Shown here in pieces: positions 5,484-54,926 of a stretch of 64,000 bases of DNA (its first letter is position 1; each line of letters starts with the position of its first letter). The position numbers and the translations under genes are program-made. The notes beneath the pieces are model-generated. The model saw only the letters and a program-made list of their open reading frames with translations. It was not told the DNA's origin and made no database searches. The stretch spans positions 1,952,001 through 2,016,000 of the forward strand of contig CM000151.3 in assembly GCA_000004695.1 (NCBI GenBank), given 5' to 3'. The DNA comes from Dictyostelium discoideum (Eukaryota).

Positions 5484-7368
5484 ATGAGTGGTGTAGGAGG
5501 TGAATCAGTACATTTGAGAAGATCATCAACAACTGCGACAACCACAGGATCTAGTAAAAGTAGTTTAAATATAAGTAAGTCAGTTTCACCTACTGGTAAT
5601 AAAGCAGTTTCACCCATGAGTTCACCAAACTCATTGCAAAGTGGTGCAACTCCTACAATAGCACAATTACAAAGTTTATTAAAACAACAACAACAACCAA
5701 ATCATTCAATAACAACAAATAATAATAATAATAAATCAGTATCGGTTGAAATTGATGATTTAAAATCTCAACTACAACATTCAAATATAAACGATACCTT
5801 TAATGAAGATGAAGAAATTGAAGAAGTAACAGACGAGGTTATCATTAATCATGATTATCATTCATCTGAAGATGAATATGAAGATGATGAAGATGAAGAT
5901 GAAAATAATAATAGTGTAAATAATAATAGTAATAATAATAGTAATAATAATAATAATAACAATACAAGTATAAGTAGTGCACATAGTTGTGAAAGTATAG
6001 CAGAGGAAGAGGAACTTACAGCATCACCAATTTTATCAAGACAATATAGTTATACAATTGGTCATGGTACAAAACCTGATGTTGTTTTATCAATTGGCGG
6101 TGGATTCCATTCATCACCAAGATCAAATAGATCAGAGAGTACCATAGTTCATGAAGATGATCTCACAAATCAAAATGATAAAGTTATAAATGCAAAAGAT
6201 AAAATCTCTTCAGATTATAAAAGAATGATGGAAGATCCTGAAGCATTTAGAAATGAAAAATTAAAACAACGTAAATCAAAATTCTTTACAAAAAAAGGTT
6301 TGTTAAAAATATATATATATACACATAAAATAATAATATTAACTTTTTTATTTTATTTTTTTTTATTTAAAAAAAAATAGATTTAGAAGAAATACCATTT
6401 AATCCATCATCAGGTACTCAATTAAGATCAACATTATTTCAACAATTTATGAATGAAAAGATACAAATGATATCAGAGAATCCAGAGAAATATAAAAGCG
6501 AATTAATGAAATTTTATAAACAAAATTTGAAACCACAAGTACCTAAATCACCACAATCAAGTGGATCATTATCAACACATTCCGATAAATTAAAGACATC
6601 ATCGTCATTACAAAGAAGTAGATCAGTTAGTCAACCACCAGTTGTGACTGGTAATAGCAAGAATGCAATTGGTTCATTGGATACTATTTTAGAAAAGGAG
6701 AGAAAGAGGGATGGAAATCAAGATAGACAATTACCAATACTATTCACAAAGTGTGTTGATTTCCTCTCAAATGATGAAGCTTTAAAAACTGAAGGTCTTT
6801 TTAGAGTTGCAGGTAATTCAAGTGAAGTTGAAGATTTAATGAAATCAATATTACTCTATGGTTCCGATATTCCAAGTAATTGTTGTTATCATGTAGTTTC
6901 AAATATGTTAAAAAAGTTTTTACGTCAATTATCAACTCCAGTTTTCACTTTTAAATATCATAATGATTTCATCCAAACAATGAGTAAGTTTTAATTAATT
7001 TTATTCAAAATTACATATATATATCTATATTAATTTTATTTTATTAACTTTTTTTATTATTTTTTTTATTATTTTTTTTTCAAGAATTAAATAATGATGA
7101 AGAAAGAATTAAAGCAATTAAAGAGATTTTAAAATTAATACCACCAGTTAATCAATTATTAATTAAAGAGTTGATGAAATTTTTAGTAAAAGTAACTAGT
7201 TTTTCAAATGTTAATATGATGCATGCTCATAATTTAGGTTTAATGTTTGGTCCAAATATGTTAAAGGCGCCATCAGATTCTGAAATGAATGCAATTTCAA
7301 TGTTGGATGCTGGTAATCAAGTAATCACTTTATTAATTGAAAATTATAATTTATTTTATGATAATTAA
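5484..7368 (+). CDS. RhoGAP-domain protein, 3 exons: join(5484..6297, 6381..6983, 7085..7368)
   Basis: Exons 2-3 encode LPILFTKCVDFLSNDEALKTEGLFRVAGNSSEVEDLMKSI...LKKFLRQLSTPVFTF...LIKELMKFLVKVTSFSNVNMMHAHNLGLMFGPNMLK. This is the RhoGAP signature, including the arginine-finger GLFRVAG and the MxxxNLAxVFGP-like motif. The N-terminus is Ser/Thr/Asn-rich low complexity. Splice phases were checked: the exon 1-2 junction rebuilds codon GAT, and exon 3 enters at a ...tttcaag|AA acceptor. Confidence 0.75.
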
Positions 7369-11628: not shown

Positions 11629-11631
<3 letters not shown>

Positions 11632-11694
11632 AATAATGAAGACACTATTAACAATAATAGTATTATATTTACCAATAACAACATTATTAATAAT

Positions 11695-11788
<94 letters not shown>

Positions 11789-12501
11789 TTGAAAGCGATA
11801 GTGAAGTTTTATTTTGGAAAGTTTTTCATAATAAATTTTTATTGTATTATATATTGAAATGCGTATCATTGCTACCATTAGAATTTACAGATACTGAATT
11901 GTATTATGTTGGAAATAGATCAAAATTTTCAAATATTAAATCACTTTATTGGATGTTATATCATAAACAATTCACACTTGTAATTGATAAATTAATATCA
12001 AATCAAGTGGTTTATATATCACCAGTTTCAATTGAATATTTAATTGAAAAATGTAAACAACCAACAACAACAACAACAACAACAACTACAACTACAACAA
12101 CTACTACTACTACAATTACAACAAAAACAACAACAACCACAGAAGAACAAGAGAATTTATTAAAACAATATAAACAAATTTATCAACTTTTAATTGAAAA
12201 AAATAAAAAAGAATTACAAAGTGTAAATTTAGTAGATAGCTGTATTAGAAATGATAATACATTAGCATTACCATTATTCTTAACAGATTCAACAAATTTA
12301 ATATTACCACAAACCATTACTACATGTATAAAAAATTGTTCCTCTGATACATTATCATTACTACTTTCATCAATTAATCAAAATTCAACAATACCTTTAT
12401 CAGAATATATAAATCCACGTCAAACAATTTTAGATGCAACTTTTAATGAGCAATATAGAGATGAAATGATTAAATTTATATTGGATTATAAATATAAATC
12501 A

Positions 12502-12587
<86 letters not shown>

Positions 12588-13236
12588 TGATGATGATAAT
12601 GATAATAATAATAATGGTGCAGATGAAAATTTTAAAAAAATATTTGAACCATTAAATAATACAACTATACCAAATTTCTCATTAATAAAATCAAAACAAT
12701 TAAAGTTAAGAATGGTTAAAGAATTTTCAAATTTCTTTTACTTGGATCCAATTTCACCAAGTTATCAAATTTTATCACAATCAATTGAAGAATGTAAATC
12801 ATATATTCAATTATTATATATAAAGATTGGTGTTGGTATACCAAAACATTTATTATCAGAAATTAATCAAATTGAAAAGAAATATAATAATACTGATCAA
12901 AATAATAATCAATTAATAATTCAAAAATTGAAAGCAATTGTTATTAAAGAGACTGGATCATTAGATTTCTATTTACAATATTTATTAGAGTATGATCAAA
13001 TCGTTGAAAATCATCAACATAATCAACCACAGAAATTATTAATTTGTAATTACACATTAGCCTTATTTTCATTAAATGGTTTAAAATATTTAGTTAATGA
13101 AAGATATCAAATTACTGATACATCATATCGTAGAGATGAAATTAATAATATCTTTAAAAAATATCGTGGTCAAATTTTAAAAAATCAATCAAAAATTATT
13201 GAATTCTTTCAATTTTATTTTCAAAAATTAAAAATA

Positions 13237-13297
<61 letters not shown>

Positions 13298-13894
13298 GTA
13301 ATAATAATAGTAATAATAATAATAATAATATAAATAATAATAAAAGAAATTCAGATATATTAGGATTAAAAAAATGGGAAGATATTATTAAATTTTTAGT
13401 AATTAATTGTTCAATTGAAACATTGAATGAATTAAAAGGAATTGAAGGTTTTCCAATTGAACATTTCTTATGTATTAATCATAGGGATATTCATGATCCA
13501 TTGAAATATGATTGGTTTGTTAAATGTATTTTATTGGAGAATAGAAAGATGCCACATTTCAGATCAACATTACAGTATATTAAAGATCAAGAGAATTTCT
13601 ACCCACATTCATGGCAATTAATAACAAAATTAGAATCGAAATTAAAGATTAAATTAACTGACGAATATTATCATTTATTCATTCATTCAATTTTAACTTA
13701 TGATTTAGAATCAATTTTAAAATTGAATACTTTAAATTTAAAATTTAAAGATCAATCTTATTATCAATCAAATGGTAATGTTGGTTTTGCAAGTTCTAAT
13801 AATTCTGTACTTTTAAATAATGTTGTAAATGATGAAAATTATAATAATAATGACCATATTGATGAATATTATCATTATAATAGTAATAAAAATT

Positions 13895-13978
<84 letters not shown>

Positions 13979-15303
13979 GAAGAAATAACAATAATAATAA
14001 GAATAGATATAGATTTAGAAATAGATATGGTATTGATGTTGGTGCAATGATTATTGGTAGTAGTGGTGGTGGTGGTGGAGGTGGAGGTGGTGGAGGTGGT
14101 GTCAATAATGATGAAGAAAATGAGGATAATAATAGTAATATTGATAATATTAATAATAGTGATGAAAATGATGAAAATTGTGAAATTAAAACTAAATTTA
14201 AAATACCAGAAACATTTGATAAAGTTTTAAATTTATTTACTTATTTTAATATAACACAATTTAAATCATTTACAGCACAAATTTTTAAGAATATGATAAA
14301 GCTATTTTTAAATAGTCCTGGTATTACTTTGGAAGAGTTATCAATGGTACCTTGTAATTTCAATATTTTTAAGAGGGAATCATTATATCTATTATTGACA
14401 TTCATTTATCAAATTAAATTTGAAAAGGTTTGTTTCATAATAAAGAATACTAAATTTCAATTCAATCTAAATGGTATTCAATTCCCACCAGATTCAATCA
14501 TTAATAAATTTCATAGAGATCATCAATTCGATGATAATTCAGTTGATCCAAAAACTTTTAAATTACTAAATTTTAAAAATCATTTACAAATAATTCAAAT
14601 TATAAATTCATTATTTGATTGGATATCATTAGTTACAAATTTAGAACAACAACAACAACAACAACAAAATAATAATGGTAATAATAATTTTTATGATCAA
14701 AAGAAAATGTTAACTTTGTTTTTACCAGTTTTTGATTATTTATATAAGAGATTATTACAAACTAGTGGTACAACATTAAAGGATATTGAAATGGTAATAG
14801 TTTTATTTAAAAAGTTTGGTATTACAATTCAAGAGGATTTCTTTAACATTTTCTTTTATTTCCTTATAAAATCAAATAAATTTAAAAAATATTTCAATTA
14901 TAAATTATCAAATCTATTAACAACACCATATGATTTAATTGATAAAAAGAAACAACCAAAATTAGAGAAATATTTTAATAGTAGTGCTTTCTCTTTTAAT
15001 CAAATTTTAAATACAAATTTTTATGATTTATTCTTAATTTTAAAAAATCATTTAAATTATCAAATTAATTTAATGCCACCACAACCTCAACAACCTCAAC
15101 AACCTCAACAACCTCATCATCAACAACAACAACAACACTACCTTAATTTTAATAATTTCATTGAAAATATTAATAATCATAATAATCATAGTATTCAACA
15201 AATTGAAAATCTTTATCATCAAGCTAATAGTATTCATGCACAATATAATAATAATAATAATAACAACAATAATAATAACAATAATAATAATAATAACAAC
15301 AAC

Positions 15304-15361
<58 letters not shown>

Positions 15362-16170
15362 GTGGTAATGATGAAATTAAAAATAAATTAAATCAAAAGG
15401 ATAGAATGATTGAAGATTTGAAATTTTTATTAGATATTGGATTAATTGGTTTAGCATTAAAATTAATTAGAGAGGAAGAAGTTTTATCAAAGGAAGAATT
15501 GAAACAAGTTATTGAAGAAATCTTAAAATCATTAGTATCGATCATATCAGTTGAAGATTTTGAATGTTTTATTCAAGATGGTTTCATTGAAATTAATGAA
15601 TTATTAAGTTTTGCTATAATAACTTCAAGATTAGATTTAATTAAAATAATTTTAGAAGATTATAATAGTGATGAAATTAATAATCAAAATGATAATGATG
15701 ATTTATTATCAAAAATTTCAAATTATTCATGTATATTTGAAACATGCCAAAATGATATTATCATTTATTTATTTTCAAAATTTAGACAACAATTAACAAA
15801 TTATGATCAAAGTAGATGGCAAGTTATTGATTCAAGTGAACCCGATTTATTCGATATTTCATTCATGAATGGTAATTTAGAGATAACTCAATTATTATTA
15901 AGTTTTTATCCAATTTATAGTGGTAATGGTAATGGTAATGGTAATAATAGTAGTAATAATAATAATAATAATAATAATGGTTGTAGATTTAAATTTAAAG
16001 AAGAAATAATTCAAAAAACTTTATTAAAAGGTTGTTTTCCTATTGTTAAATTTTATTATGAAAATGGTTTCTTCAGTAATCAATTGGTTGATTCAATTAG
16101 ACAATTACCAATTTCAAAGTTTTTACCTTGGTTAACAAATAAAAGAAAATTTGAAGAATTAGAATTTTAA
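11629..16170 (+). CDS. Member 2 of the same paralogous family; a single-exon ORF of 1513 aa with five long poly-Asn (AAT)n tracts, a poly-Thr tract, a poly-Gly tract and PQQ repeats
   Basis: It is one long ORF in AT-rich DNA. The N-terminal block SDSEVLFWKVFHNKFLLYYILKCVSLLPLEF...LYWMLYHKQFTLVIDKLISNQ is similar to ILFWKVFKNNFLKRQIFYLMLNMDIEF...FKWMIKNNLLDLIKFKLEKNQ at 24953 and to ILYFKVFKNIYINKKIWSFV at 8673. Leu/Ile/Asn-rich repeat-like modules lie downstream. No recognisable enzymatic motif is present. Confidence 0.7.
11695..11788 (+). repeat. (AAT)n of about 31 units, encoding poly-Asn near the N-terminus of family member 2. Further (AAT)n arrays of 20-35 units occur at about 12496-12594, 13240-13330, 13900-13978, 15247-15360 (same gene), 18274-18345 (FHA-BRCT gene), 23026-23140 (ARM-BTB gene) and 25523-25615 (family member 3)
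   Basis: Direct reading. The minus-strand ORFs over these tracts (poly-L, poly-Y, poly-I and so on) are frame and antisense artefacts. Confidence 0.85.
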
Positions 16171-16946: not shown

Positions 16947-18274
16947 ATGTCAAAAAATAGTAATGTTACAATAGTTGATCCAGTATTAAGATTAAAACCA
17001 ACAATTGGTGGTGACCCATCTCACCCATTCTCTGATTTTAAAATTGAAATAGGTGTAAATAAAATTGGTAGAGCATCATCAAATAATATATACTTAAAAG
17101 GTGATACTTCAGTTTCAAATTATCATGCTCAACTAGGTAATTATTTATTTTTAAAATAAAAAAAATAAAAAATAAAAAAATAAAAAAATAAAAAATAAAA
17201 AAATAAAAAAATAAAAAAATAAAAAAATAAAAAATAAAATAATTCTAACTCATTTATTTATATAATTTATGTGTATATTTTTTTTTAGTATTTAATGGAG
17301 CATTCTTTTTAATTAAAGATTTAAATAGTTTAAATAAAACTATGGTTCAATATAGACCAAATGAAGATACAACTGTCTTAAAACCAAATTTAGAGTATCC
17401 AATTATTAATGGTAGTAAAATTACATTTGGCTCTGCAACAATGACACTCAGTTATATGGAAGTTCATAATAGTAATTATTCAAATGATACAATAAATACA
17501 GAGAAAAATTTTAGTTATACTGATAATAGATTAGTACCTCCATCACCACCTGAACCAAAACAACAACAACAACAACAGCAACAACAAATTAATAAACCAC
17601 AACCAATACAAAATATAAACACCACAACCACAACCACAACTACTACAACTACAACCACAGATACAGGTGCATCACTCCTATCTCCAAAATCATCAAATAA
17701 CAACAACAACAACAGCAACAACAACAGCAATACAACCACCACAACTTCATCATCTCCATCTCACCTTTTAACCACCTCTAATTCTGAAATAAAAGATATT
17801 GAAAATAATGTACACCATATAAATAGCAATAACAAAAGAAAACAAGAAGATGAAAATGTTGATAGTTTAGGTAGTTTTGACGACGATGGCAATCTGGTAA
17901 CTGTTAAAAAGCACAAATTAAATAAAATAATAGATGAAGAACACGAAGAACATGAAGAGTATGAACAAAAAGAACTAAAAGAAAAAGAAAAAGAAAAAGA
18001 AAAAGAAAAAGAAAAGAAAAAAGAAATTAAAAAGACAGTATCAAAATATAATATAGAAATTGAAGATGATTTAGAAATGGAGGAAGATGAAAAATTAAAT
18101 AACAATCAAAGTTATGATAGAACTGAACAACAAAATGATAATAATAATGATAATGATAATATTGATAATATGATGGACGAAGAGGATGATGAAATTTCTT
18201 CATCACCTCAACCAATTAGAAAAGAAAATAAAATAGTTAAAAACGATAAAAAAAAAGAGAAAAAAGAAGAAACC

Positions 18275-18347
<73 letters not shown>

Positions 18348-19369
18348 GTATTAGTAATACAAGTCAAAATAGTATAACAAGTCAACAAAGTGATATTAGC
18401 AATAATAGTAGTGGAAGTGTTTGTAAAAGGGGTAAAAGAGGTGCTGGAAAAGTAAATGATGTATATATCAATAATATAGGTATTGATATTGTAAATAGTA
18501 AAAGAAAAACATCAAAACCTGAAAGATTAGAAGAACAAATTTTACAAAAATCATCTTCATCATTATCTTCATCTTCTTCATTACCCTCGTCATCTTCATC
18601 CTCCTCATCATCATCTTCATTTGATAATAAAGAGAAAGAAGAAATAATTAATAAATCACCAAAAAAACAACAAACACCAAAAACAACAACAACAACAACA
18701 AAAACAACTACAAAAACAACATCATCAACAGCAAAAGCAAATTCAAATATAAAGATATTATTTTCAATGTTTTCAGATGATGTTGTAAAGAATTTTGAAT
18801 CAATTTGTTTAAAACTTGGTGGTTCATTAGCAAATAATTCAAAAGAATGTACACATTTGGTTAGTGATGAAATGAAAAGATCGAAAAAGATATTGGAGTG
18901 TATTTCATTTGGTAAAATTATTGTAACCTCTAAATGGTTAAAGGAAAGTAAGAAATCGAATCATTTCTTACCAGAATCACAATACCTTTTAAAGGATGAA
19001 AAAGCAGAATCAGAGTGGGATTTTAATTTGGAGAAATCTTTATCAATCGCTAGAAATAGGGTTAGTGGTAGTGCTGCTTTAAAACCGTTGTTTAATAATA
19101 TGTTGTTTTTCATAACAAAGAATTCAATACCACCAAAGGAATTCCTTAAAGAGATTATTGAAATCAATGGTGGTAATTTATTGGATGATATCAAAGATGC
19201 TGAGAACCAAGAGAATCAAAAAAAAATTATAGCCGTAATTGCAAATGCTGATAAAGATAAAAGGTCTTTAAAAAAATGGTCTGATAATTCTTATAAAGTT
19301 TTAAAAGGAGATTTCATTTTATTATCTGTACTTTCTCAACATTTAATTTATGAAGGTTGTGAAATTTAA
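16947..19369 (+). CDS. MDC1-like DNA-damage mediator: N-terminal FHA domain, a long Ser/Thr/Asn/Glu-rich middle, and C-terminal tandem BRCT domains. 2 exons: join(16947..17136, 17289..19369)
   Basis: The FHA domain is FKIEIGVNKIGRASSNNIYLKGDTSVSNYHAQLG|VFNGAFFLIKDLNSLNKTMVQYRPNEDTTVLKPNLEYPIINGSKITFGSATM (G-R core, S..HA, NGT-type beta-hairpin, ..I.FG), spanning a 152-nt gtaatt...tttttag intron. The C-terminus KLGGSLANNSKECTHLVSDEMKRSKKILECISFGKIIVTSKWLKESKKSNHFLPESQYLLKDEKAESEWDFNLEKSLSIARNR aligns closely with the gamma-H2AX-binding tandem BRCT of human MDC1 ([62 protein letters not shown]...FGFSLQDALSRARE). A second BRCT follows (MLFFITKNSIPPKEFLKEIIEINGGNLL...). Confidence 0.7.
17158..17236. 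repeat. (AAAAAATAAAAAAT)-type A-rich minisatellite inside the FHA-BRCT gene intron
   Basis: Direct reading: aaaaaataaaaaataaaaaaataaaaaaataaaaaataaaaaaataaaaaaataaaaaaataaaaaata. Confidence 0.75.
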
Positions 19370-22053: not shown

Positions 22054-22420
22054 ATGATGGCAGAAACAGCAGAGGATTCAGATCCAATCTCAGAAGCAGT
22101 TGGGTAAGATTATAAAGTTATATTAAAGAAAAAAAAAAAAAATAAAATAAAAAACTAGGGTTATATATATATATTATATACTAATTAATATTTTTTTTAT
22201 TTTTATTTTATATTTTTTTTTTTTTTCTAAATTAATTAATGAATTATTAGATTCATTAGTAATATACTATCAAGTGATACAGAATTACAATATAAAGGAT
22301 TAAAAGGGTTAATGATATGTCCAACTTCACTTGTTGTTGAGTTATTCAAAAATCCAGCTTACTTTTATCATATAAAAAAACATCCAAATCATAAATTTAA
22401 TAACCATAATAATCATAATG

Positions 22421-22452
<32 letters not shown>

Positions 22453-23094
22453 CCATCACCAACATCTTCAACTACATCATCAAATGGCTCATCACCTAAT
22501 AATGGAAATTCTCCAAATCATGGTTCATCATCACCTAATAATAATAATAATAATAACAATAATAACAATAATAACAATAATGTATCATCTAATACTTCAT
22601 CATCATCATCCTCTTCATCGCCACATTCATCATCATCACCAACTAATTGCCCATCGACTTTACCTCATGGAGTTGATCCATGTAATCAATGTTCACCAAA
22701 TGGGTCACCAAAATATTCAGATATTGATTTCGATAAAATCACAAAAAAAAGAAAAAGCAATATAAAAAGTTTAATTGAACTTTGTTTATCCGAAAATAGA
22801 AAAGTTCAATCATCTGCATTAAGATTATTATGGCATTTATCTGCACAAGGTATTTTTTAAAAAATTAAAAAAAACAATTTCTAAAAATAATAATAATAAT
22901 TTACTAATTTAATTTTTTTCTTTTCTATAATTAATTTAGCTGATTTAAAAGTTTTATTATTTGAAGAAGGTGTTTTAGATAAATTAAAATCGTTAATGTT
23001 TAGTGATTTTGAAAAATATAATATTAATAATAATAATAATAATAATAGTAAATACCCCAATAATAATAATAACAATAATAATAATAATAATAAC

Positions 23095-23137
<43 letters not shown>

Positions 23138-24440
23138 GTGGTTCAACATCACCAACAGATATTGCAAATGAAAGACAAATCAATGTACATAGAACAGATG
23201 TTCAATTAGCATCATCAGCAATTTTACAGAATATAACAGAATTTAGATTTGAAAAAGGTGAAATTAATCCAAACCAAGTGAAGATCGTTAATGAAGGTAT
23301 AGTTGATTTAATTCTAATACCAAGATCCAAGAGTACAGATAAAAGAGTTCAATTCTTAACAACACTCACTATTGCAAACTTATCAATGAATGATGAAAAT
23401 CATACAGCACTTACAAAATCAAAAGCATTTGATGTGGTTGAAGCATTTGTAACTTCAAATTCTTTACATATGGATTTAGTTTGTCATTGGATAACTTTAC
23501 AACCTCATATACCTTTATTACATTCAAAATATCATCAAGTTCAATTATTTGCATTATATTGTCTATATAATTTAATAAGGAATGGTATGAATTATTTAAG
23601 TAATTTAATTATATTTTTTAAAAAACAAAAAGCATATTTGCTAATTTATTTTTATTTTATTTTTAAAAAGAACAATATAAAGTTGAAGTTTGGAAAGGAT
23701 TAAGTGTAAATAATGGTGTACAAAGTATTTTCATTTTATTACATTCAATGCATCCAAAAGTTGTTGAATTAGCAAAAAAGATAGCAGATCAATTACAGAT
23801 TGAAGAACCATCAGTCACTGTGAATACAACAAAGATTGGTACAGATTTGAAAAAGTTATTTAATAATCAAGAATATTCAGATGTTATATTCACATGTGAA
23901 GGAAAGAAATTGTATGCACATAAAGCGATTTGTGCATCGAGATGCGAACAATTGAGAGCAATGTTCACTTGGGGTAAGGAATCAAAAGAACAAGATATCA
24001 ATCTACCACATACACCCTACTGTGCGATGTATGGTGTGTTAGAGTACATCTATTGTGGTCAAGCTACTATCACTTGGGAGAATGCATGTGATCTATTGCA
24101 ATGGGCTGATTTCTTTTCTTTGGCTGGTTTAAAAAGTAGTTGTGAATTTTATTTATGGCATTATATTGATTTAGAGAATGCTCCTATCATTTTGACTGTA
24201 GCTGATCGTTATCGTTGTACTCAATTAAGAAATGTAGCCGCTAACTTTGTTCTTAGAAATTGGGATAAAATTAAAGATTTTGACGTTTGGATAAATCAAG
24301 TCACTGTTGATGTTAAAAATTATATCTCTGAAAGAATTTATTCTTTAATAACTTGTTCTTGTGGTTGTATTTGTAGTTGTGTTGATGATGCTAAAAATAA
24401 TAATGCAAATTCTCCTTCTCAAATTGTTGATGAAAATTAA
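22054..24440 (+). CDS. Armadillo-like repeat plus BTB/POZ domain protein, 4 exons: join(22054..22103, 22251..22849, 22940..23584, 23671..24440)
   Basis: Exon 1 (MMAETAEDSDPISEAVG) joins exon 2 through a gtaaga...ttattag intron, and the phase was verified at all junctions. The middle part has ARM/HEAT-like repeats (VNEGIVDLILIPRSKSTDKRVQFLTTLTIANLSMNDENHTALTKSKAFDVVEAF). The C-terminal BTB domain is YSDVIFTCEGKKLYAHKAICASRCEQLRAMFTWGKESKEQDINLPHTPYCAMYGVLEYIYCGQATITWENACDLLQWADFFSLAGLKSSCEFYL. The ARM+BTB architecture is as in ARMC5 or plant ARIA. Confidence 0.7.
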
Positions 24441-24535: not shown

Positions 24536-24952
24536 AAAAAAAAAAAAAAAAAATAAAAAAAAATAAAAAAGAAATAAATAATCATTGAAATTTATAATTG
24601 TTTAAACATTAAATTAAAATGAAATAAAATAAATAAAAAAAATAAATTAAAACTTTATTTAAAAAAAAAATACCAATAGGAGGAAGTCGACTTCCTAATG
24701 CTTTTATTTATAATATTATTAGTTTCTAATGTGTCCATAACCTGATAATTGTTTTTTTTTAAAAACTAAATAAAAAAAAAAAAAAAGTTAAAAAATAATA
24801 TCTCAATTTTGAGACATTAAATATCTTTTTTTTAATTTTTTTTATTTTTTTTTTATATTTTTTTTTTTTTGATTATCTTTTTTTTTTTTCATTTTTTATT
24901 TTCAATTTTTTTTTTTTTTTTTTTTTTAAAAACAATAAGAATACATAAAGAA

Positions 24953-25520
24953 ATGAATGAAGATTTAACAAAATTAAAGAGAGAAATCATACAACAACAA
25001 CCAATGGATTATAACGAAATTTTATTTTGGAAAGTTTTTAAAAATAATTTTTTAAAAAGACAAATCTTTTATTTAATGTTGAATATGGATATTGAATTTC
25101 AAAATCATTCAAAATATTTTACTGAAAATAGAATTAAATTTGAGAATGTTTACTCATTTAAATGGATGATAAAAAATAATTTATTAGATTTAATAAAATT
25201 TAAATTGGAAAAAAACCAATATATTGATATTAGAAATAGTGATATCTGTAATTTCATTAAATCTGTCAAAATCCTCGGTGGACCTTCAAAAATAACAAAT
25301 AATCATTTAATTATCTTTAAATTATTAATTAATCAATACCAAATTCTATTTGAAAATCAACATGTTAGATTATTAGTAAGACTTGATAATCATCAATTTT
25401 TACAAATACTATTATCAGAATCAATTAAAAAATTTAAAATCACTTCAAGTCATATTTCATTTTCAATTAAAAAATGTTCAACATTAACATTAGATTTATT
25501 AAATAAATATATAAATAAAG

Positions 25521-25615
<95 letters not shown>

Positions 25616-28006
25616 TATATTAATAATGATAAAGATAAAATAATAACAAATTATATTAAAACCAACTCAATAGAATGGTGCTTACAATATAATAATAATG
25701 ATAAAGATAGTATGATATCATACATTTTGGAAAATAAAATTTTTTTATATAATCAATATGGGTTTCATAATTATTATAAATATGATTTAGAAATTTTTGT
25801 AGTAAATAATGATAAAGCGTACAATTTAAATCAATGTATCCCAACAACAACAGCAACTGAAGAAGTTACAACAATGGTAAAAGAATTGGAAATTAATTCA
25901 AAAATTAGTGATTATGAAAAAATAAAACAATTTATTAAATCAATTGTTAAAAAGGAAAATTCAATGAAATTATATAGTTTTTATTATTTTAAATATTATG
26001 AATTAATTGAAAAGGATGATGATTTTAAAGGTTTTAATGATAGTGGATTCTTAAGATTAAATACAGTTGGAATATTAAATAAAATTGATAATTTAATTAT
26101 TGATTTAAAAAATAATAAAATTAATACCAATGATATTATTAATTTTATTATTAAATTTTTAAATGAAATTAAATGGAATAATTGGAGAAAGAATAAAGTT
26201 TTATTAAATAGAATTAGAATTTTAATATTTGAAATTGTTAATGATAATAAAGAACTATATGAAAAATCAATAACTAAATTAAAACAATCATTAAACATTC
26301 AATTATATAATTTATTTGAATTTCCTAAAGAATGGAATTCGAATATGATTTCATTAACAATTGAACCAATGAAAAGTAATGACATTTTATTAATGGATAA
26401 AAATAATTATTGGTTAAATGCTATTGATCGTATAAATAATAATAATAGTAATAAAAGTATTGCAACACCATTTATAATAGAATTAAAAAAGAAATTATGG
26501 AAAAATTTAATAGCATTTGATCAAGATGAAAAAATAAATAAAATAAACAATAAAAACAATGTTAAAATTAATAATAATAATAATAAAAATAATAATTTTA
26601 ATTTATATGAACGTTTTCAAAATGAAAATAATCAAAAAGAAAATTTAAAATTCAAAAGTACAATTATAAATTTTAGTCAATTTTTAGATATATCAAATCC
26701 ATTTCCCCTTGAAACTGATATAAAAGAATCATTTGAAACTATCTTTGAATCAATTAATGAATTTGATATTACAAAAATTAAATCAGTAATTAATTCAATC
26801 GATATCTTTTCACCACCAATCTCAAGACAATTCTCAAGATCATGGGAAGCATTTATAAAGAAATTTTTTAATAATCAATTTGAATTAATACAAGACGATG
26901 ATCAACTTGAAATTGTAAAGAATTATTTAAAATTTTGGTTAACTTTAAATCCAAAAATCGTTAAAAAAACATCATCATCATCATCAACAACAGCAACAAC
27001 AACAACAGCAATATCAACAAAACCAAAAAGACCAACAAGACCACTACCAAATTATCAATTTATAATTAATTATTTATTTAAAATTTTGATTAAATTTAAA
27101 GGTATTTCAATTTCAGAATTAATTGAAATTAAAAATCAAATTAAAAAGAAATCAATTTTATTGGAAAATTCAGTTTATCATATTGGATTCTATTTAAATT
27201 TTAAATCTTCAAAATATTTTGCATATTTTAAAAATGATTCACTTTTAGGAAATAAAGCAAATTTAAATGATTTAAATAAAATTTGTACATTTGAATTTAT
27301 ATTTGAAGAAGGTAGATCATTTGATGAAATATTAGAAACAATTATAATCAATAGTACATCAATAACTGATAATACAATCAACTACCTAATTAATATAAAT
27401 AGAATTAAATTATTTAGAAAATATTTCCCAATTTATTTAAAAAATGACAGATATTTCATTTTTAATGAACTTTTACAAATTGGTTTTACCCTTTTAAAAA
27501 AGTTAATTAATTATAGTACAAATTTAGAATATATTCAATCCAATTTAAATGAATATTTACAACAAATTGAATTAAAAGTATTGGATAATAAAATTGATAT
27601 TATAATTTTTAAGAAAATTTTAAGTAATATTTTAGGTTATTCAATAATTTTAAATAGAAAAGATATAGTTTCATTCATTATAAATCAATATAATATAAAG
27701 GAAATTTCAAATGATTTTACTTATTGGAATAATTATCCAATGATTGAATATATTTGTGAAAATCATCCAAATGTTGATATTTCAAAACCTTTTCAAACTG
27801 CCTTTGATAATAGTTTACCATTTCTTTCAAAATCAATACCAATCTTTGATATCCTTATAAAGTATAAACCATCTTTATTCATAATTACACCTTATAATTT
27901 AAACAATGCAATTTCATCCAAAGATTATTATATTTTAAATTATTATTTTAAAAAAGGTTATTTACATAAAGATGAAGATGGTAATTTTAAATTAATAAAA
28001 AATTAA
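24953..28006 (+). CDS. Member 3 of the paralogous family (MNEDLTKLKREIIQQQPMDYNEILFWKVFKNNFLKRQIFYLMLNMDIEF...); a single exon of about 1017 aa with a 30-unit (AAT)n poly-Asn tract
   Basis: The long ORF is listed from 24869, but the upstream MIIFFFFHF... is poly-T translation, so the first plausible ATG is 24953. It shares the N-terminal motif and an overall Leu/Ile/Asn/Lys-rich repeat organisation with 8673 and 11629. All three are on the plus strand. Confidence 0.65.
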
Positions 28007-35847: not shown

Positions 35848-36067
35848 ATGAATAAAAATCAAAATGATTGGAAAGTTGAATTAAGAAAAGCAACAAGATC
35901 AAGTTTAATTAGTATAACCAATGAAACAGATTTTCAATTACAAAGAATATCATGTAAATTACAACAGGGAATGTTAAGATTAATCCCACCAGGTATGTTA
36001 ACAAGTTTAATTATTTTATGTTTTTCCCCCCCTACAAGTGGTGTGATTGTTGACATTTTATTTTGTG

Positions 36068-36103
<36 letters not shown>

Positions 36104-39100
36104 ATTATACCACCAAAATCAAGCATAGAATTTGGAACAGAAAGTAATGCATTTATGACAGGTACAAAAGGATCAGTAATTTATATAGTATTACCACCAT
36201 CAAGTTCACCGATTAATGTTGGATCAATTCAATCATTAACTCATTTACAATCATTAAAACTTTGGGATCCATTAGTTTATATTATAATTGAATGGTCAAC
36301 ACCATATTGGTCACAACATAGTTGTAGTATTCAAGTACAACCACAACAAAATTCATCATTATTAAATGTTAAATCAAATTTATCACAAAGAGAAATTAAT
36401 AAACAAATTCATTCAGAAGTTTTAATGTTTATACATAATAATGATAGTAATGGTGAAATTCAATTTAAAATTTATAAAAATTCATTATCAAATAGTGGTA
36501 ATGGTAGTAGTGGTGGTAATAATAATAATAATAATAATAGTTTAAATAATAGTAATAATAGTATAGGTAGCAGTGGTGGTAATGGTGGTGGTGGTAGTAA
36601 TGGTTCATCACCAAGTATGTCACCACAATTTACATCAATTTCAAAAACAAATTCACCACAAATTATTAATACAAGTAGTAATAATTTAAATAGTAGTAGT
36701 GGTAATAATAATAAACCAATATTTTCAATTGTAGATAATGATTATACATCATCACAATCAACATCATCAATACCAGTAGTTGCAGGTATAAATAGTAATA
36801 GTAATAGTAATACTAGTGGTAGTGGTAGTACAAGTATATCATCACCAAATTCATCATTTTCATCAAGTTTACCATCATTTTTTTCAAATAATTTCCCATT
36901 ACCATGGTCAAATGATGGATTTGGAGTTGATGGTGGTTGGAAAGCAAATGTAAAGAGAGGATCACGTGGTCAATTTATAACGATTCGTAATAATACAAGT
37001 AAACATTTAATAAGAAGGAATCAAACATGTTTAAATAGTGGAAGATGGTGTGAACCACCACCAGAGGGTATACCACCCAATTCTATGATTGAATTTGGTT
37101 CGGTTAGTAGTGGTTTCACTACGGGTACTGATGGTGTAATTCATTATCATAGTCAAGGTTCGAAATCTGATTTTAGATTTCAATTTAATAATCCATTAAT
37201 GGGTAAATCATCATTCACCTATCATTGTCCAAATGGTTTCAATGTTGAAGAGAAATATACTGATGGTAATATCTCATCAGTATCATTCACAATTAATGAA
37301 GGTGATAGTCAAACAATTCCAAAACAAATACCTGATTCACCATTACCAATACCACCAATTAAAACTGATCCAAAACAAGTTTTCATAAATGATGATTCAA
37401 TTAGAATATTTTCATTTAATGTTGGTTCAATAAATGTTAAAGAAAGTGGTAAAGAATTAATGAATATTAATAATAATAATAATAACAATAATAGCAATAA
37501 TAATAATAATAATAATGATCAAAATAAAGATAAAGATAATCAAATGTTAAATAATTCAAATTTAATTAATAAAAGAATTGAACAAATTTCAAAGAATTTA
37601 ATTAATTTTTCAGAGAAATATGATATAATATTATTACAAGAAGTATTTTTAGATTCATCAAAAGATATTTTAATAAAGAATTTAAAGATTTATTATCCTT
37701 ATATTATTGATAGATGTGGTGAAAATTCGGGATTATTCTTTGCAAGTAGATTCCCACCACTATGGAATGAATTTAGACAATTTAATAATGGTATTGGATC
37801 TGATGTAAAATATGGTAAAGGTGTACAAGGTGTGAAATTGGATATATCAACCATTAAAGAGAATACTTATCTTTACGTTTTCAATGCAAATTTACAAGCT
37901 AATCCTGATAACTCAATCGCTTGGCAAATGGTGAATGGTGATGATAAGCAAAGGAAAGCAGCAACAGTGCGTACATTACAATTACAATCGATTCGTGATT
38001 TCATTTCAACGGAATTGGCAATGCAATCTTCAACCATTGCAAACTCTGCTCTATTATTAGTTGGTGATTTCAATTTAAATGCAGAGGTTGAGCAAGTCAT
38101 TTCCGATCATGAGAGTAATAGTATCACTCTCTCACAAATCATACCAGAGTTGGCAAAGAAAATCAATAGTAAAGAGATCACCCTAACTTTTAGTTACCAA
38201 TTGTTAGAGTATTTAAATGATTTAAATATTCCAATGAGATATTTAGGCATTCTAAGATCACAATTACAAAATAATCGTATGAAATCTTTGGTACTCACTG
38301 AAATGATCACCTATATCATCAAGAAGGATATCATTGAACATTTAACTCAACGTCATAATCAATATCAGTCAAATATTAATGAAGATGAACAAATCTATAG
38401 AGAGGTGGTATTGGAGACTTTTAATTTAATATTTCATTATACTAGAAAGGATTGTATTCAATTTTGGCGTCATCATCTTAGAAAGAGATTAAGATCCGAG
38501 TTTAGTTCATCCCTATCGGAAATTGAACAACAAGATTGGGTGGATTTAAGAACTCATGTAATTAATCTTCAACTATTTACAAGTTTAAAATATTCTTTAG
38601 AGATCACTTTTAATCCAAAAGCTGTTTTCCAAATTATGAAAGGTTCAAGAATAAATACAAAAGAAATCATACCCATACCATTGATTTTACCTGAACAAAT
38701 CGAAGAAATCATTTTACCACCATTAACTTCTTATTGGGGTTCAGATTCAAATACTGATATAAATTATTTTACAAATATTGATCATTTAAAAGAACAACAA
38801 AAAAAACAAGCTCAATTACAACAATTACAACAACAACAAGCTCAACAACAACAACAAGCTCAACAACAAACCCAACAACAACAAAATTCAAATATAAATA
38901 TAATTAATACAATAGAATCATCACAAATTCAACAAAATAATAATATACAAATTTATTTGAAACAAACTGATGAATATAATAATATGTTAAAGATATTAGG
39001 TAATCCTGTTGATTTATTTAGAGAGTCTAATCCATTTTCACCAGGTTATACAATTCATCAATCTTTAAATCAACGTGTTGAAAAACCTTCACTCAAAGAA

Positions 39101-39280
39101 CGTGTAGATTATATATTAAACTTTAAATTATCTCCAAATTTTGGTGATCATGAAGGTAGAAATCAATTATTAAAATTGGAATGTACTGAAACTAATATAG
39201 TTCCAATGGGTGCAACTCCTCAAACTAGATTATCAAATCATTTTGCATTAGAATGTATATTACATATTAAAAAGAAATAA
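35848..39280 (+). CDS. Large protein with an internal duplicated N-terminal module, a Ser/Asn/Gly-rich linker, an EEP (endonuclease/exonuclease/phosphatase, neutral sphingomyelinase/CCR4-like) catalytic domain and a Clu-like C-terminal region. 2 exons: join(35848..35992, 36102..39280)
   Basis: The gtatgt...aaaaag intron has verified phase (cca g|...|ag = GAG). Repeated module: IPPKSSIEFGTESNAFMTGTKGSVIYIVLPPSS versus IPPNSMIEFGSVSSGFTTGTDGVIHYHSQGS. EEP motifs: IRIFSFNVGS...YDIILLQEVF...YLYVFNANLQANPDNSIAWQMVNGDDKQRKAATVRTLQLQSIRDFI...LLLVGDFNLNAEVEQV (LQEV and GDFN are hallmark Mg-dependent phosphodiesterase motifs). C-terminus: ITLTFSYQLLEYLNDLNIPMRYLGILRSQLQNNRMKSLVLTEMITYIIKKDIIEHL resembles the CLU central domain (...MRYLG...). 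A Gln-rich coiled-coil lies near the end. Confidence 0.6.
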
Positions 39281-51431: not shown

Positions 51432-52583
51432 CACTTTTTACTTTTTACTTTTTTTATTTATTTATTTATTTAATAACTAACAGTCCATTTTCTAAAATAA
51501 ATAAATAAATAAAAAATTTAAAACATAAAAAATAATAATAATAATAAATTTATAAAAATTCAATTTAAATATTTATATATTAAAAAAATAAAAAATAAAA
51601 AATAAAAAAAATAAAAAAGATTTAAGAATGATGGTAGAGATTTAGGAATTTTAATACAATTAGAATCAAAGATTGGTGAAGAAGTAGGAGCATTTAAAAT
51701 AGAGAATTCAAACTTAACAAGTATAGACTATCCATTATTAAAATCATATGGTATGAGTCCTGAAATAGAGAATAGTGGTAGTGGTAGTAGTAGTGGTAAC
51801 AACAATAATAATAATAATAATAATAATAATAGTTTGGTACATGGGGATATAAATATAGAGGAATTAATAAAGAATATGACAATCGATCAATATTACGATA
51901 ACAAAGTATCAATGATGAATATCGTTGATCTTATGCCCGGTAAAGAGATTACAATGATTTCAAAATATTTAAAAGAATTACCAACTATAAAAACTAATAA
52001 CAATAATAATAATAATAATAGCAAACCAAATCCAAATATAGATAGTAGTAATGGAGATGAGATAATATCGATAACCATACCGAAACAGACATCAATAACA
52101 TCACCATTCCCACCAATAAATATAGAGATTACAATCGATGGTGAAGTTAGTATACCACTTCACTCATCGGTATGTCCATCACATCCATCATCAATTTCAT
52201 CATTGACCCTATGTGAGAATATCATATCATCGAAACATGATATCAAAAGTAATTCCTTATTGAATGATGATTTCAATTTACTCATTGGTTTAGAATCAGA
52301 ATTGCATCACAGTGGTTGGACAACATGTACATTATCACCCTCCTCATCACCTCCATTATTATCCTCCTCTCCAAATTCACTACCACCAACCACTGTAATT
52401 TCAACTTTGATAAATTTAAATCAACCAACACCACCACTTGTCGATAGAGTTTCTTTTAACAATGTAGAATATAGTCTAAATAGTTCATCAACAACAACTA
52501 CATCTTATAGTAATAATAAACAAACTATAATTTATAGTTTGAATAATAATGATAATAATACAAATAATACAAATAACAATACA

Positions 52584-52614
<31 letters not shown>

Positions 52615-53955
52615 TAATTTTAAAGTATAATAATAACAAAGAATTTAACCTTTTATTAAAAACCCCAACTTTACCCTCTTCATCGAGTATTTTAAATAAA
52701 TTTTCTTCACTTTCAAAAATTCAACAATTATGTAAAAATAATGATAATAATAGTAATAATAATAATGATAATAATAAAAATAATGATAATAATAATAAAA
52801 ACAATGATAATAATAATAATAGTAATATAGATACAGGTACAGGTTTAGATATAGGTACATTATTGAATATAATATTCACAACATCAAATAATAATAGTAA
52901 TTTAGTAAATAATAATAATAATAGTAGCAATACGATAGTGTCACCACTTTCACAATCAGCACCACCAATTAATAATAATAATAATAGTAATAAAGATATA
53001 TCAATGATTGAACAAAATATAACGACAACATCATCACCACCAACAACAATAACAACAACATCACCACCATTACCAAAACTTCAAGAATCTGGTGAACTTT
53101 TATCAAATATGTTATCGAATTTACCAAAAGCGAAATTAGGGGGATTAAATCAACAAAGTTTAACAGCACCACCATCAGTTGGTAAAGATCTTTCAAATCC
53201 AATTGCAGATTTCATAGCAAGTAGAGCTGCAGCAGGTGGTTCAAGTGGTAGTAATAAACCCAAGAAGGGACCACCACCTAAATTGGGTGGTTTAGGTGGT
53301 GGGTTGAATACCTCAACAGGTGCAGGTGGAATTGGTGATGTTAGAGTACAAAGATTGGCAAGTTATAATAAAGTCAACCAATTATGGAATGTTTCATCAT
53401 CAGATTTTGCACAACGTGTTTCAATTACCCTAAGAGAACTTGAACCCTATGCAATTGATTATGCATTGTCTCATATTAAATCAAAGTGGTGGGACAAGAA
53501 TAGGATAGCAACACTAGCTGAAATCAAATGTATACATTCTATAATCTCTTCAATCATTAATAGTCCAAAAATTAATTTAACATATATTTCTCCATCATCA
53601 TCATCATCAACAAACTCTTCAAATTCAGACGCAAAAGATCAAACATCAACCACTACAACCACCACTACATCATCACCAACTCCAAGTGCTTCAGATGTAG
53701 CAGCAAGTAGATTTTTATTACAAAAAGGTAGTTTTACTGATTTAACAAAATTAATGGGAAAACCACAATCATCATCATCATCATCATTATCACCCTCATC
53801 TTCACTCAATCCTTCACCATCAACCTCATCAAATTCTTTATTATCACCATCATCACCAAGTAAAACGAGAAAAGAGGTAGAGATGGAAATTGATCCAGTA
53901 AAACTGAGATGGATTGTTGAAGAAGTTTTAAATGGTGAAAAAGCGTCAATAGAGA

Positions 53956-53999
<44 letters not shown>

Positions 54000-54919
54000 G
54001 GTAATAAATGGTTTAGTGTAAGTATTGGAGAAACAAAAGGAGGTAGACCTCATATGGAGGATAATCATGTTATTCTTGAGTATCCATATGAATTATATGG
54101 TTTAGAGAAAAAGAAAAGTGTAGATTCAATAGCAGGTGCAAATAGTAATAGTAATAATAATAATAATAATAATAATTGTATAAGTATTTTATCATCAAAT
54201 GAACAATTCTTTTTTGGTGTATTTGATGGTCATAATGGAAAGATAGCAGCTGAATACTCAAGAGTTAATTTACCTTATGAAATTTTTAATAGCTTTATAA
54301 AAATTAACAAAGTTGGCAACAGCGCAAACAATAACAATGTTGATGATTTATGTTTGGAGGCTATCAAACAAGGCTATTTGAATACAGATAAATACTTTTT
54401 AGATTATGCAGAATCTGATAATAAGAAAGCAGGTACAACAGTTGCAACAGTGATCTTGGAAAGAGAAAGATTTATCGTTTCAAATGCAGGTGATACAGAG
54501 GTTGTATTATGTTCAGGAGGCATTGCTGAACCATTGTCAATCATTCATACACCAAAATTAGATACTGAAAGAATACGTATAGAGAGTGCTGGCGGTTCAA
54601 TCATTCATTATGGTACACTAAGAGTCAATGGTTTATTGTCAGTATCTCGTTCCATTGGTGATAAGAATTTAAAAGAATTTATTATACCAAATCCTGATTC
54701 CCACATTCACAATATCAATAAACCCAATGACCAATTCTTAATGATTGCAACTGATGGTCTTTGGGAAGTTTTTAACCATCAAGATGTAGTCAATGAAGTC
54801 CTAAAATTATTACAAGATAAAACTATTCAAAAAGATGATATCTCTTCAATCATTGTTGAAGAAGCAATTAAAAGAAATTCAAAAGATAATATAACTTTAA
54901 TAATTATTTTCTTTAACCA

Positions 54920-54926
<7 letters not shown>
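51225..54926 (+). CDS. PP2C-family Ser/Thr protein phosphatase with a very long low-complexity N-terminal region, 2 exons: join(51225..51364, 51620..54926). Exon 1 is tentative; the unambiguous ORF starts at 51753
   Basis: C-terminal PP2C catalytic domain: GETKGGRPHMEDNHVI...FFFGVFDGHNGKIAAEYSRVNLPYEI...AGTTVATVILERERFIVSNAGDTEVVLCSGG...LSVSRSIGDKNLKEF...FLMIATDGLWEVFNHQDVVNEV (motifs xxDGHGG-like FDGHNG, GTT, NAGDSR-like NAGDTE, SRSIGD, DGLWE). Proposed upstream exon MVLNLVSDENGLDISFISYNVTFIDRCAQFTVTLKYKNLSSLPLPLK ends with a|gtacat donor. The phase rejoins the main ORF at acceptor ...aaaaaag|ATTTAAG (aa+a = AAA, then FKNDGRDLGILIQLESK...), with a 255-nt AT-rich intron. Confidence 0.6.

Follow-up and report, generated by a model that had tools for sequence, protein, structure and literature searches.

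A Dictyostelium discoideum gene encoding an FHA domain and a tandem BRCT that probably belongs to the MDC1 family

The DNA-damage mediator MDC1 has a simple domain layout, in which the N-terminus carries an FHA domain and the C-terminus a tandem BRCT (tBRCT), and this layout was found in 119/119 metazoan MDC1 proteins examined (Lorkovic et al., 2024, PMC11014961). It has also been reported from social amoebae. Wei et al. (2014, PMC4013092) listed EAL70982 from D. discoideum and EFA74881 from P. pallidum as apparent homologues of MDC1/Mdb1 in which an FHA is N-terminal and a tBRCT C-terminal, and inferred that the MDC1/Mdb1 family may predate the Opisthokonta. Here we describe a gene on the + strand at positions 16947-19369 of a 64,000 nucleotide stretch of D. 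discoideum DNA (contig CM000151.3, positions 1,952,001 to 2,016,000; the window). Based on its architecture and its FHA match, the gene probably encodes the MDC1-family protein of dictyostelids, a scaffold that mediates the response to DNA damage. It is at the least the orthologue of the gene published in 2014. In UniRef, the orthologues from D. purpureum, P. violaceum, and T. lacteum carry the name "Mediator of DNA damage checkpoint protein 1." Both the homologue and the evolutionary point are therefore already known, in print since 2014 and from database names. An initial annotation of the window presented an amoebozoan MDC1 as relevant to the evolutionary origin of the H2AX-MDC1-MRN axis, an inference that Wei et al. 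(2014, PMC4013092) had already made. We found no functional study of a Dictyostelium MDC1-like protein in the literature, and the word "mediator" does not occur in a review of DNA repair in Dictyostelium from 2021, which was also not among the papers that name both Dictyostelium and MDC1.

The protein can be compared with four groups of described proteins. It has the same organization as MDC1 (human MDC1, Drosophila MU2, and the FHA+tBRCT proteins of invertebrates and chytrids), that is, an N-terminal FHA domain, a long disordered middle, and a C-terminal tandem BRCT. At 756 aa it is much shorter. Human MDC1 is 2089 aa long. Equivalents of the four ligand-contact residues of human MDC1 are present, but the linker lacks TQxF, SDTD, and PST repeats and so has no evident RNF8 or NBS1 docking sites, the beta1-alpha1 loop has Ser for Thr and Met for Gly, and BRCT2 is more PTIP-like. 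With BRCT5-6 of PAXIP1/PTIP, Brc1, and Rtt107 it shares the Pfam pair RTT107_BRCT_5 and BRCT_2 and the T/S...R-T/S-x-K pocket. Those proteins carry four more N-terminal BRCTs and no FHA, whereas the Dictyostelium protein combines one FHA with only two BRCTs. Schizosaccharomyces pombe Mdb1 (PDB 7p0j, 7p0l) is a non-animal gamma-H2A reader of the MDC1 family with a C-terminal tBRCT and the same pocket Ser. Mdb1 has no recognizable FHA and is a weaker sequence match, whereas a canonical FHA is retained in the Dictyostelium protein. Arabidopsis BCP4 and BCP3 (XIP), likened here by description, are non-animal C-terminal tBRCT readers of gamma-H2A.X and proposed functional counterparts of MDC1, but have no FHA and possess motifs of their own (SQSQ, DWD, DTQ, TQx-phi).

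The Pfam matches to one FHA and two BRCT domains are far above chance (Table 1). A phmmer search of PDB sequences with the C-terminal 207 aa as query had as its top match BRCT5-6 of PAXIP1/PTIP (3sqd; E 3.8e-23), aligned end to end with 32.6% identity. MDC1 was second (2ado, 2azm; E 4e-16), with 35.7% identity over 129 aa that run from BRCT1 through the linker into the beginning of BRCT2. Lower matches were S. pombe Brc1 BRCT5-6 (E 6e-12) and S. pombe Mdb1 (E 3.5e-8). An AlphaFold2 model of the BRCT pair built on a 35-sequence alignment had a predicted local distance difference test score (pLDDT) of 95.1 and a predicted template modeling (TM) score (pTM) of 0.90; a three-sequence alignment gave a pLDDT of 36 and was unusable. 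A Foldseek search of the PDB ranked the PTIP BRCT5/6-gammaH2AX complex first (TM 0.88, root-mean-square deviation [rmsd] 2.1 A). Next were MDC1-gammaH2AX (TM 0.77-0.80; about 210 aligned columns at 28% identity), Brc1-gammaH2A, Mdb1-H2A, and MCPH1-gammaH2AX, and only after these came BRCA1, BARD1, and TopBP1. Because the best-matching folds are all gamma-H2A(X) complexes, the pair is assigned by predicted fold and sequence to the class of tandem BRCTs whose ligand is the C-terminal tail of H2A/H2AX in its phosphorylated form. The initial annotation had proposed a C-terminal tandem BRCT of the gamma-H2AX type, and the Pfam pair, the PDB matches, and the top folds agree with it. It had also aligned the pair residue for residue with that of human MDC1, but the nearest solved relative by both sequence and fold is PTIP BRCT5/6.

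The residues that contact the ligand are known from MDC1, in which T1898 and K1936 bind the phosphate, R1932 the +2 residue, and R1933 the terminal carboxylate (PMC4013092). In S. pombe Mdb1 the pocket Ser and Lys are S392 and K434. By alignment, T1898 corresponds to S556, R1932 to K593, R1933 to R594, and K1936 to K597. Conservation was scored by column over 136 aligned homologues, which include 7 dictyostelid, 23 FHA+tBRCT, and 48 PTIP sequences. R594 and K597 are unchanged in all three groups (7/7, 23/23, and 48/48). Position 556 is Ser in 7/7 dictyostelid sequences and Thr in most other homologues. A basic residue occupies position 593 in 6/7 dictyostelid and 21/23 FHA+tBRCT sequences, but in only 7/48 PTIPs. 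The binders of phosphate and carboxylate are thus present, with S556, R594, and K597 unvarying in the seven dictyostelid sequences, which answers the check on pocket conservation proposed in the initial annotation. Its placement of the phosphoserine pocket was right for the Lys-containing motif (K593-K597) and wrong for T-H-L-V-S-D (aa 585-590). The latter is conserved in the alignment but has none of the contact residues listed in PMC4013092, and the true pocket Ser lies 30 residues earlier, in L-F-S556-M557 (L-F-T-G in MDC1). The near-universal Thr-Gly of the phosphate loop is replaced in dictyostelids by Ser-Met or Ser-Leu, and Acytostelium alone has kept the Gly.

The FHA domain is canonical. 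The phosphothreonine-binding residues G41, R42, S57, H60, and N79 show no variation in six dictyostelids. When a profile of the six dictyostelid FHA domains was searched against the PDB, the top eukaryotic FHA was that of MDC1 (E 1.1e-5), in an alignment that begins at the N-terminal strand. Other eukaryotic FHA domains in the same search were those of KAPP (E 3e-3), Dun1 (1e-2), Xrs2 (0.075), and Ki-67 (0.8). A hidden Markov model (HMM) made from FHA domains that belong to FHA+tBRCT proteins outside the dictyostelids scored 54.6 bits on this domain vs. 41.8 for Pfam FHA, and it also aligned the C-terminal LKP..Y......ITFG segment. The domain is interrupted by a single intron that splits codon 64, as had been proposed from the open reading frames (ORFs).

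Between the two domains is a low-complexity linker that is poorly conserved beyond the genus Dictyostelium in alignments of seven and three species. A regular-expression scan of the linker, together with the seven-species alignment, found no SDT[DE] or S[DE]T[DE] motif, PST repeats, or acidic CK2-type sites. The likeness to the PST/SDT region of MDC1 that was initially suggested therefore stands for composition but not for motifs (no SDT[DE], TQxF, or PST-repeat motif). SDTD motifs and PST repeats were added in vertebrates or mammals, and Drosophila MU2 and invertebrate MDC1 lack both (PMC11014961). Their absence here is thus compatible with MDC1 membership. With neither TQxF nor SDTD present, downstream effectors would not be recruited via TQxF/RNF8 or SDTD/NBS1. 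Two islands stand out in the linker. The basic island SKRKTSKPERLEEQI differs little or not at all among three Dictyostelium species and is recognizable in one more distant dictyostelid (P0004: SRRNTKPPEKL). It did not match known MDC1 motifs and could be a nuclear localization signal (NLS) or a docking motif. A second island, EEDDEIxSSPQP at about aa 360-372, is common to Dictyostelium species, and for either island such a role is a guess.

Membership in the MDC1 family is the most economical reading of this gene because it combines the FHA-N/tBRCT-C layout with an FHA whose best eukaryotic match is that of MDC1. The gene, the architecture, and the contact residues are kept across Dictyostelia. 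That the combination of FHA, low-complexity middle, and tandem BRCT is a signature of MDC1, as the initial annotation held, is borne out by the survey of metazoan proteins cited above. If the protein works as MDC1 does, a double-strand break would lead PIKK kinases to phosphorylate the C-terminal SQ motif of H2AX, and the tandem BRCT would dock on the phosphorylated tail. S556 and K597 would hold the phosphate, R594 the free C-terminal carboxylate, and K593 the Glu at +2. The FHA domain, with its G-R, S-x-x-H, and N loops intact, may bind phosphothreonine partners or dimerize, as does the FHA of MDC1. The disordered linker of ~430 aa would serve as a spacer bearing the basic, NLS-like island, and repair or checkpoint factors would be scaffolded on damaged chromatin. 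Binding of gamma-H2AX by the BRCT pair is what we infer from these residues and folds. Dictyostelium forms gamma-H2AX foci after phleomycin treatment, as detected with an anti-human gamma-H2AX antibody (PMC8758696), and the H2A.X of another amoebozoan, Physarum, ends in SQEY (PMC8600027).

Several observations weigh against this reading. Generic bacterial FHA domains match just as well (about 28-30 bits) as the MDC1 FHA does. TQxF (scanned as TQx[FYLIV]) is absent from the linker here and in the Dictyostelium orthologues, and invertebrate MDC1 does have TQxF (PMC11014961). The existence of the ligand in Dictyostelium is deduced from the foci and the Physarum tail, and not from the C-terminal sequence of Dictyostelium H2AX. 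Other points come from the homologues of the BRCT pair and from its phosphate loop, and they bear on two alternatives that are weighed below.

Homologues were collected with a profile of the dictyostelid BRCT pair in an exhaustive search of 1.84 billion representative proteins, which resulted in 2177 matches at E <= 1e-3. With the full-length protein as query, poly-N/T/S words dominated and only two Dictyostelium orthologues were returned; a word-index search with the BRCT pair alone gave no match. Orthologues from dictyostelids head the profile matches (those of Polysphondylium violaceum, Tieghemostelium lacteum, and Acytostelium subglobosum, and one EukProt entry), all of them FHA+tBRCT proteins. 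We surveyed the architecture of 151 sequences, the top 150 of the 2177 matches and the window protein, using locally built HMMs. An N-terminal FHA with a C-terminal tBRCT was found in 32/151, which are the window protein, five dictyostelid orthologues, and 26 further homologues that include mollusc and crustacean MDC1 and proteins of the chytrids Batrachochytrium, Geranomyces, Spizellomyces, and Nowakowskiella. The statement that fungi largely lack MDC1, made in the initial annotation, needs qualifying in light of these chytrids, with their full FHA+tBRCT layout, and of fission yeast Mdb1. A PTIP-type BRCT3-4 pair was detected in 53 of the top 150 homologues, and the same local HMM detected no dictyostelid protein among the 150.

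Some gene models among these homologues are doubtful. A. subglobosum has P0006 (682 aa, with an FHA truncated at its N-terminus) and P0007 (a 167-aa fragment of the BRCT pair) on different contigs. P0006 is probably an incomplete gene model, and for P0007 a paralogue and an annotation fragment are both possible. P0044 (KAJ3123297.1) of Nowakowskiella sp. JEL0407 is called "PAX-interacting protein 1" by NCBI. Its FHA is N-terminal and its BRCT pair C-terminal, and the local profile of PTIP BRCT3-4 did not match it. It looks to be of the MDC1 type and is probably misnamed.

The better of the alternatives is that the gene is not a strict MDC1 orthologue. It would descend from a PTIP/Brc1-type BRCT5-6 reader or represent the undivided ancestor of the MDC1 and PTIP reader modules, with the FHA either gained independently or kept. 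Such a protein would still read a phosphorylated SQ tail, with partners and a pathway that are PTIP-like or lineage-specific. Much of the BRCT evidence leans this way. After the dictyostelid orthologues, the next profile matches are animal PAXIP1 proteins (P0009, P0010), and 3sqd is first by both phmmer and fold. An HMM of the PTIP group scored 186.7 bits on the window BRCT pair vs. 169.7 bits for an HMM of the FHA+tBRCT group. In a neighbor-joining (NJ) tree of the 136 BRCT pairs, the PTIPs stand apart from the FHA+tBRCT proteins and the dictyostelids fall on the FHA+tBRCT side. In 100 NJ bootstraps, the dictyostelid clade was on the PTIP side in 51 and on the FHA side in 49. Only three columns discriminate the PTIP from the FHA group and they are split; the length of alpha1 near residue 563 is as in PTIP and unlike the FHA group. 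Lorkovic et al. (2024, PMC11014961) argue, moreover, that MDC1-like readers arose independently in plants.

As HMMs, tree, bootstraps, and columns disagree, the BRCT pair alone cannot separate MDC1 from PTIP, and by sequence the pair appears to lie near the MDC1/PTIP split. Other points weigh against descent from PTIP. There is no sign of BRCT1-4: the window protein has two BRCTs only, and the sole PTCB-BRCT signal (E 0.014) is under its cutoff and overlaps BRCT1. Chytrids and animals share the FHA-N/tBRCT-C layout, so that a single origin is more economical. Among eukaryotic structures the FHA is closest to that of MDC1. A basic residue at the R1932 position is common to the FHA+tBRCT group. 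Slowly evolving PTIPs would also draw high scores even if MDC1 were the true sister. We consider descent from PTIP, or from before the split, unlikely. The initial annotation had named two findings that would speak against MDC1, a BRCT pair closer to another family and a pocket without its phosphopeptide-binding residues. Our searches put the pair slightly closer to PAXIP1/PTIP, and the pocket residues are present.

The second alternative leaves family membership aside and concerns the ligand. The BRCT pair may have the fold of a reader and not bind gamma-H2AX in vivo, with the change from Gly to Met, or differences in the +3 pocket, redirecting it to another phospho-ligand, or with the protein recruited indirectly. 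In the seven dictyostelid sequences, the position of G1899 is Met in four (Met557 here), Leu in two, and Gly in one. The equivalent position is Gly in 22/23 FHA+tBRCT and 34/48 PTIP homologues. There are precedents for indirect recruitment, as PAXIP1 foci need MDC1/RNF8 and not direct contact with gamma-H2AX, and plant BCP1 co-localizes with gamma-H2A.X without binding it (PMC11014961). Against these, neither Gly position is among the side-chain contacts listed in PMC4013092. PTIP homologues also carry residues other than Gly (His, Ala, Ser) at the equivalent of 557. Stucki and colleagues are said to have reported in 2005 that the Gly position contacts the phosphate only through its backbone NH. 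S556, K597, and R594 do not vary, and R594 makes sense only for a ligand that ends at +3, which fits the tail of H2AX. The model also superposes on three gamma-H2AX complexes with an rmsd of 2.1-2.9 A. We regard a reader fold that does not bind gamma-H2AX as quite improbable.

An NBS1/Xrs2-type or Ki-67-type FHA protein has next to no chance of being correct: NBS1 likewise pairs an FHA with a tandem BRCT, but there FHA and BRCT pair sit side by side at the N-terminal end, whereas here the two are ~430 aa apart with the BRCT pair C-terminal, NBS1/Xrs2 BRCTs are absent from the PDB sequence and Foldseek matches, and the FHA domains of Xrs2 and Ki-67 match far less well (E 0.075 and 0.8) than that of MDC1 (1e-5). 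Domain order and match lists effectively rule out the NBS1 type. In a 2026 preprint, a Dictyostelium protein with a long disordered region and an N-terminal FHA is put forward as a Ki-67 homologue; that candidate, Q54WT0, is a different protein of 1032 aa.

The coordinates of the gene and of its neighbors are given in Table 1.

Table 1. Features of the MDC1-like gene and neighboring genes in the window.
Feature	Position in window	Strand	Residues	Description
Exon 1	16947..17136	+	aa 1-63 and first base of codon 64	190 nt; N-terminal strand and first half of FHA, with G41-R42 and S57-x-x-H60
Intron	17137..17288	+		152 nt, GT..AG, phase 1; splits codon 64 between L63 and V64, within FHA
Exon 2	17289..19369	+	aa 64-756	Second half of FHA, low-complexity linker, tandem BRCT; stop TAA 19367..19369
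FHA domain	17061..17431 (intron included)	+	Pfam aa 39-111	Pfam E 1.5e-10, 41.8 bits vs. cutoff 20.7
Linker	17432..18703	+	~aa 112-535	About 430 aa; poly-Q, poly-T, poly-N (24 Asn), EK-rich acidic/basic stretch, poly-S
Basic linker island SKRKTSKPERLEEQI	18497..18541	+	aa 467-481	From three- and seven-species alignments
Tandem BRCT module	18746..19366	+	aa 550-756	
BRCT1			~aa 551-631	Pfam RTT107_BRCT_5 aa 536-631, E 1.8e-10
S556-M557 codons	18764..18769	+	aa 556-557	MDC1 T1898-G1899; PTIP alignment VLFTGF / ILFSMF
K593-R594-S595-K596-K597 codons	18875..18889	+	aa 593-597	MDC1 R1932-R1933-T-V-K1936
BRCT linker helix			~aa 632-662	
BRCT2			aa 663-751	Pfam BRCT_2, E 4.2e-15
Upstream Asn-rich ORF	11629..16170	+	1513 aa	No significant Pfam domain
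BTB/POZ gene, next downstream	~22312..24440	+		Pfam BTB E 4e-22
Downstream Asn-rich ORF	24869..28006	+		Large; no significant Pfam domain

The window has a base composition typical of Dictyostelium, with 21% G+C and long homopolymer and simple-repeat tracts. Two + strand ORFs in different frames make up the gene, and the GT..AG intron splices both into 756 open codons. The ATG is preceded by an A-rich context. The intron donor is GTAATT and the acceptor is TTTTTTAG / TTTTTTTTTAG, a T-run and then AG. In D. citrinum, the orthologue P0001 (NCBI annotation) has an identical MSKN... start and reads through the junction AQL/IFNG likewise. The D. citrinum locus (L001) has the donor CAATTAA/GTAATT at the same codon and the upstream flanking gene in the same order. 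The loci were compared by blastn without a low-complexity filter, which gave mostly repeat noise, and only the collinear blocks were used. The two-exon model is thus supported by a start, a splice junction, a donor codon, and a neighboring gene shared with D. citrinum. The 756-aa product is 81% identical to the D. citrinum orthologue overall; for the FHA the figure is 95% and for the BRCT pair 88%. The intron itself is nearly all tandem A7-8T units (aaaaaaat / aaaaaat), and its counterpart in D. citrinum is a long (ATT)n run, which points to fast turnover of intron sequence at a fixed position. On the minus strand, the ORFs that overlap the gene mirror its low-complexity tracts and are unsupported. 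Scans of the 64-kb window for tRNAs and Rfam families gave no match.

The MDC1-like gene lies between two large Asn-rich ORFs, with the BTB/POZ gene also on its downstream side. The two Asn-rich ORFs are distantly paralogous, with 31% identity across 189 residues at the N-terminus (E 2e-10), have in common the motif ILFWKVF.N.FL, and may belong to a lineage-specific family. The comparison covered these two ORFs; the window has further ORFs of ~1000 aa at 36047..39280 and 51753..54926. A + strand ORF at 5484..6380 has a weak match, under the cutoff, to Pfam MBD_C, a domain at the C-terminus of methyl-CpG-binding proteins 2/3 (E 5e-4, 21 bits vs. a cutoff of 27). The BTB/POZ gene is of interest for gene order. 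A protein in the databases, P0008 (1404 aa), has three parts: aa 389-551 are an MDC1-like tandem BRCT, another region has 80-84% identity to the BTB-gene exons, and a further part is a GH20 hexosaminidase. P0008 is evidently a fused gene model and appears to be mis-annotated. It suggests that the order of the MDC1-like and BTB genes is kept in another, most likely dictyostelid, genome.

The presence of the FHA and tandem-BRCT mediator layout in Amoebozoa and chytrid fungi indicates that it predates animals. There is a small chance that the dictyostelid protein is a near-ancestral gamma-H2AX reader, one that preceded the divergence of MDC1 and PTIP BRCT5-6 and acts as a mediator without the known MDC1 docking motifs. 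If so, it would represent an unrecognized coupling of gamma-H2AX to repair factors, e.g., via the FHA or the SKRKTSKPERLEEQI island. The dictyostelid change from Gly to Met or Leu in the phosphate loop could tune ligand specificity. Dictyostelium, in which gamma-H2AX foci, DNA-PKcs, and non-homologous end joining have been studied, would be a tractable organism for an MDC1-type scaffold that does without the RNF8- and NBS1-docking repeats of vertebrates.

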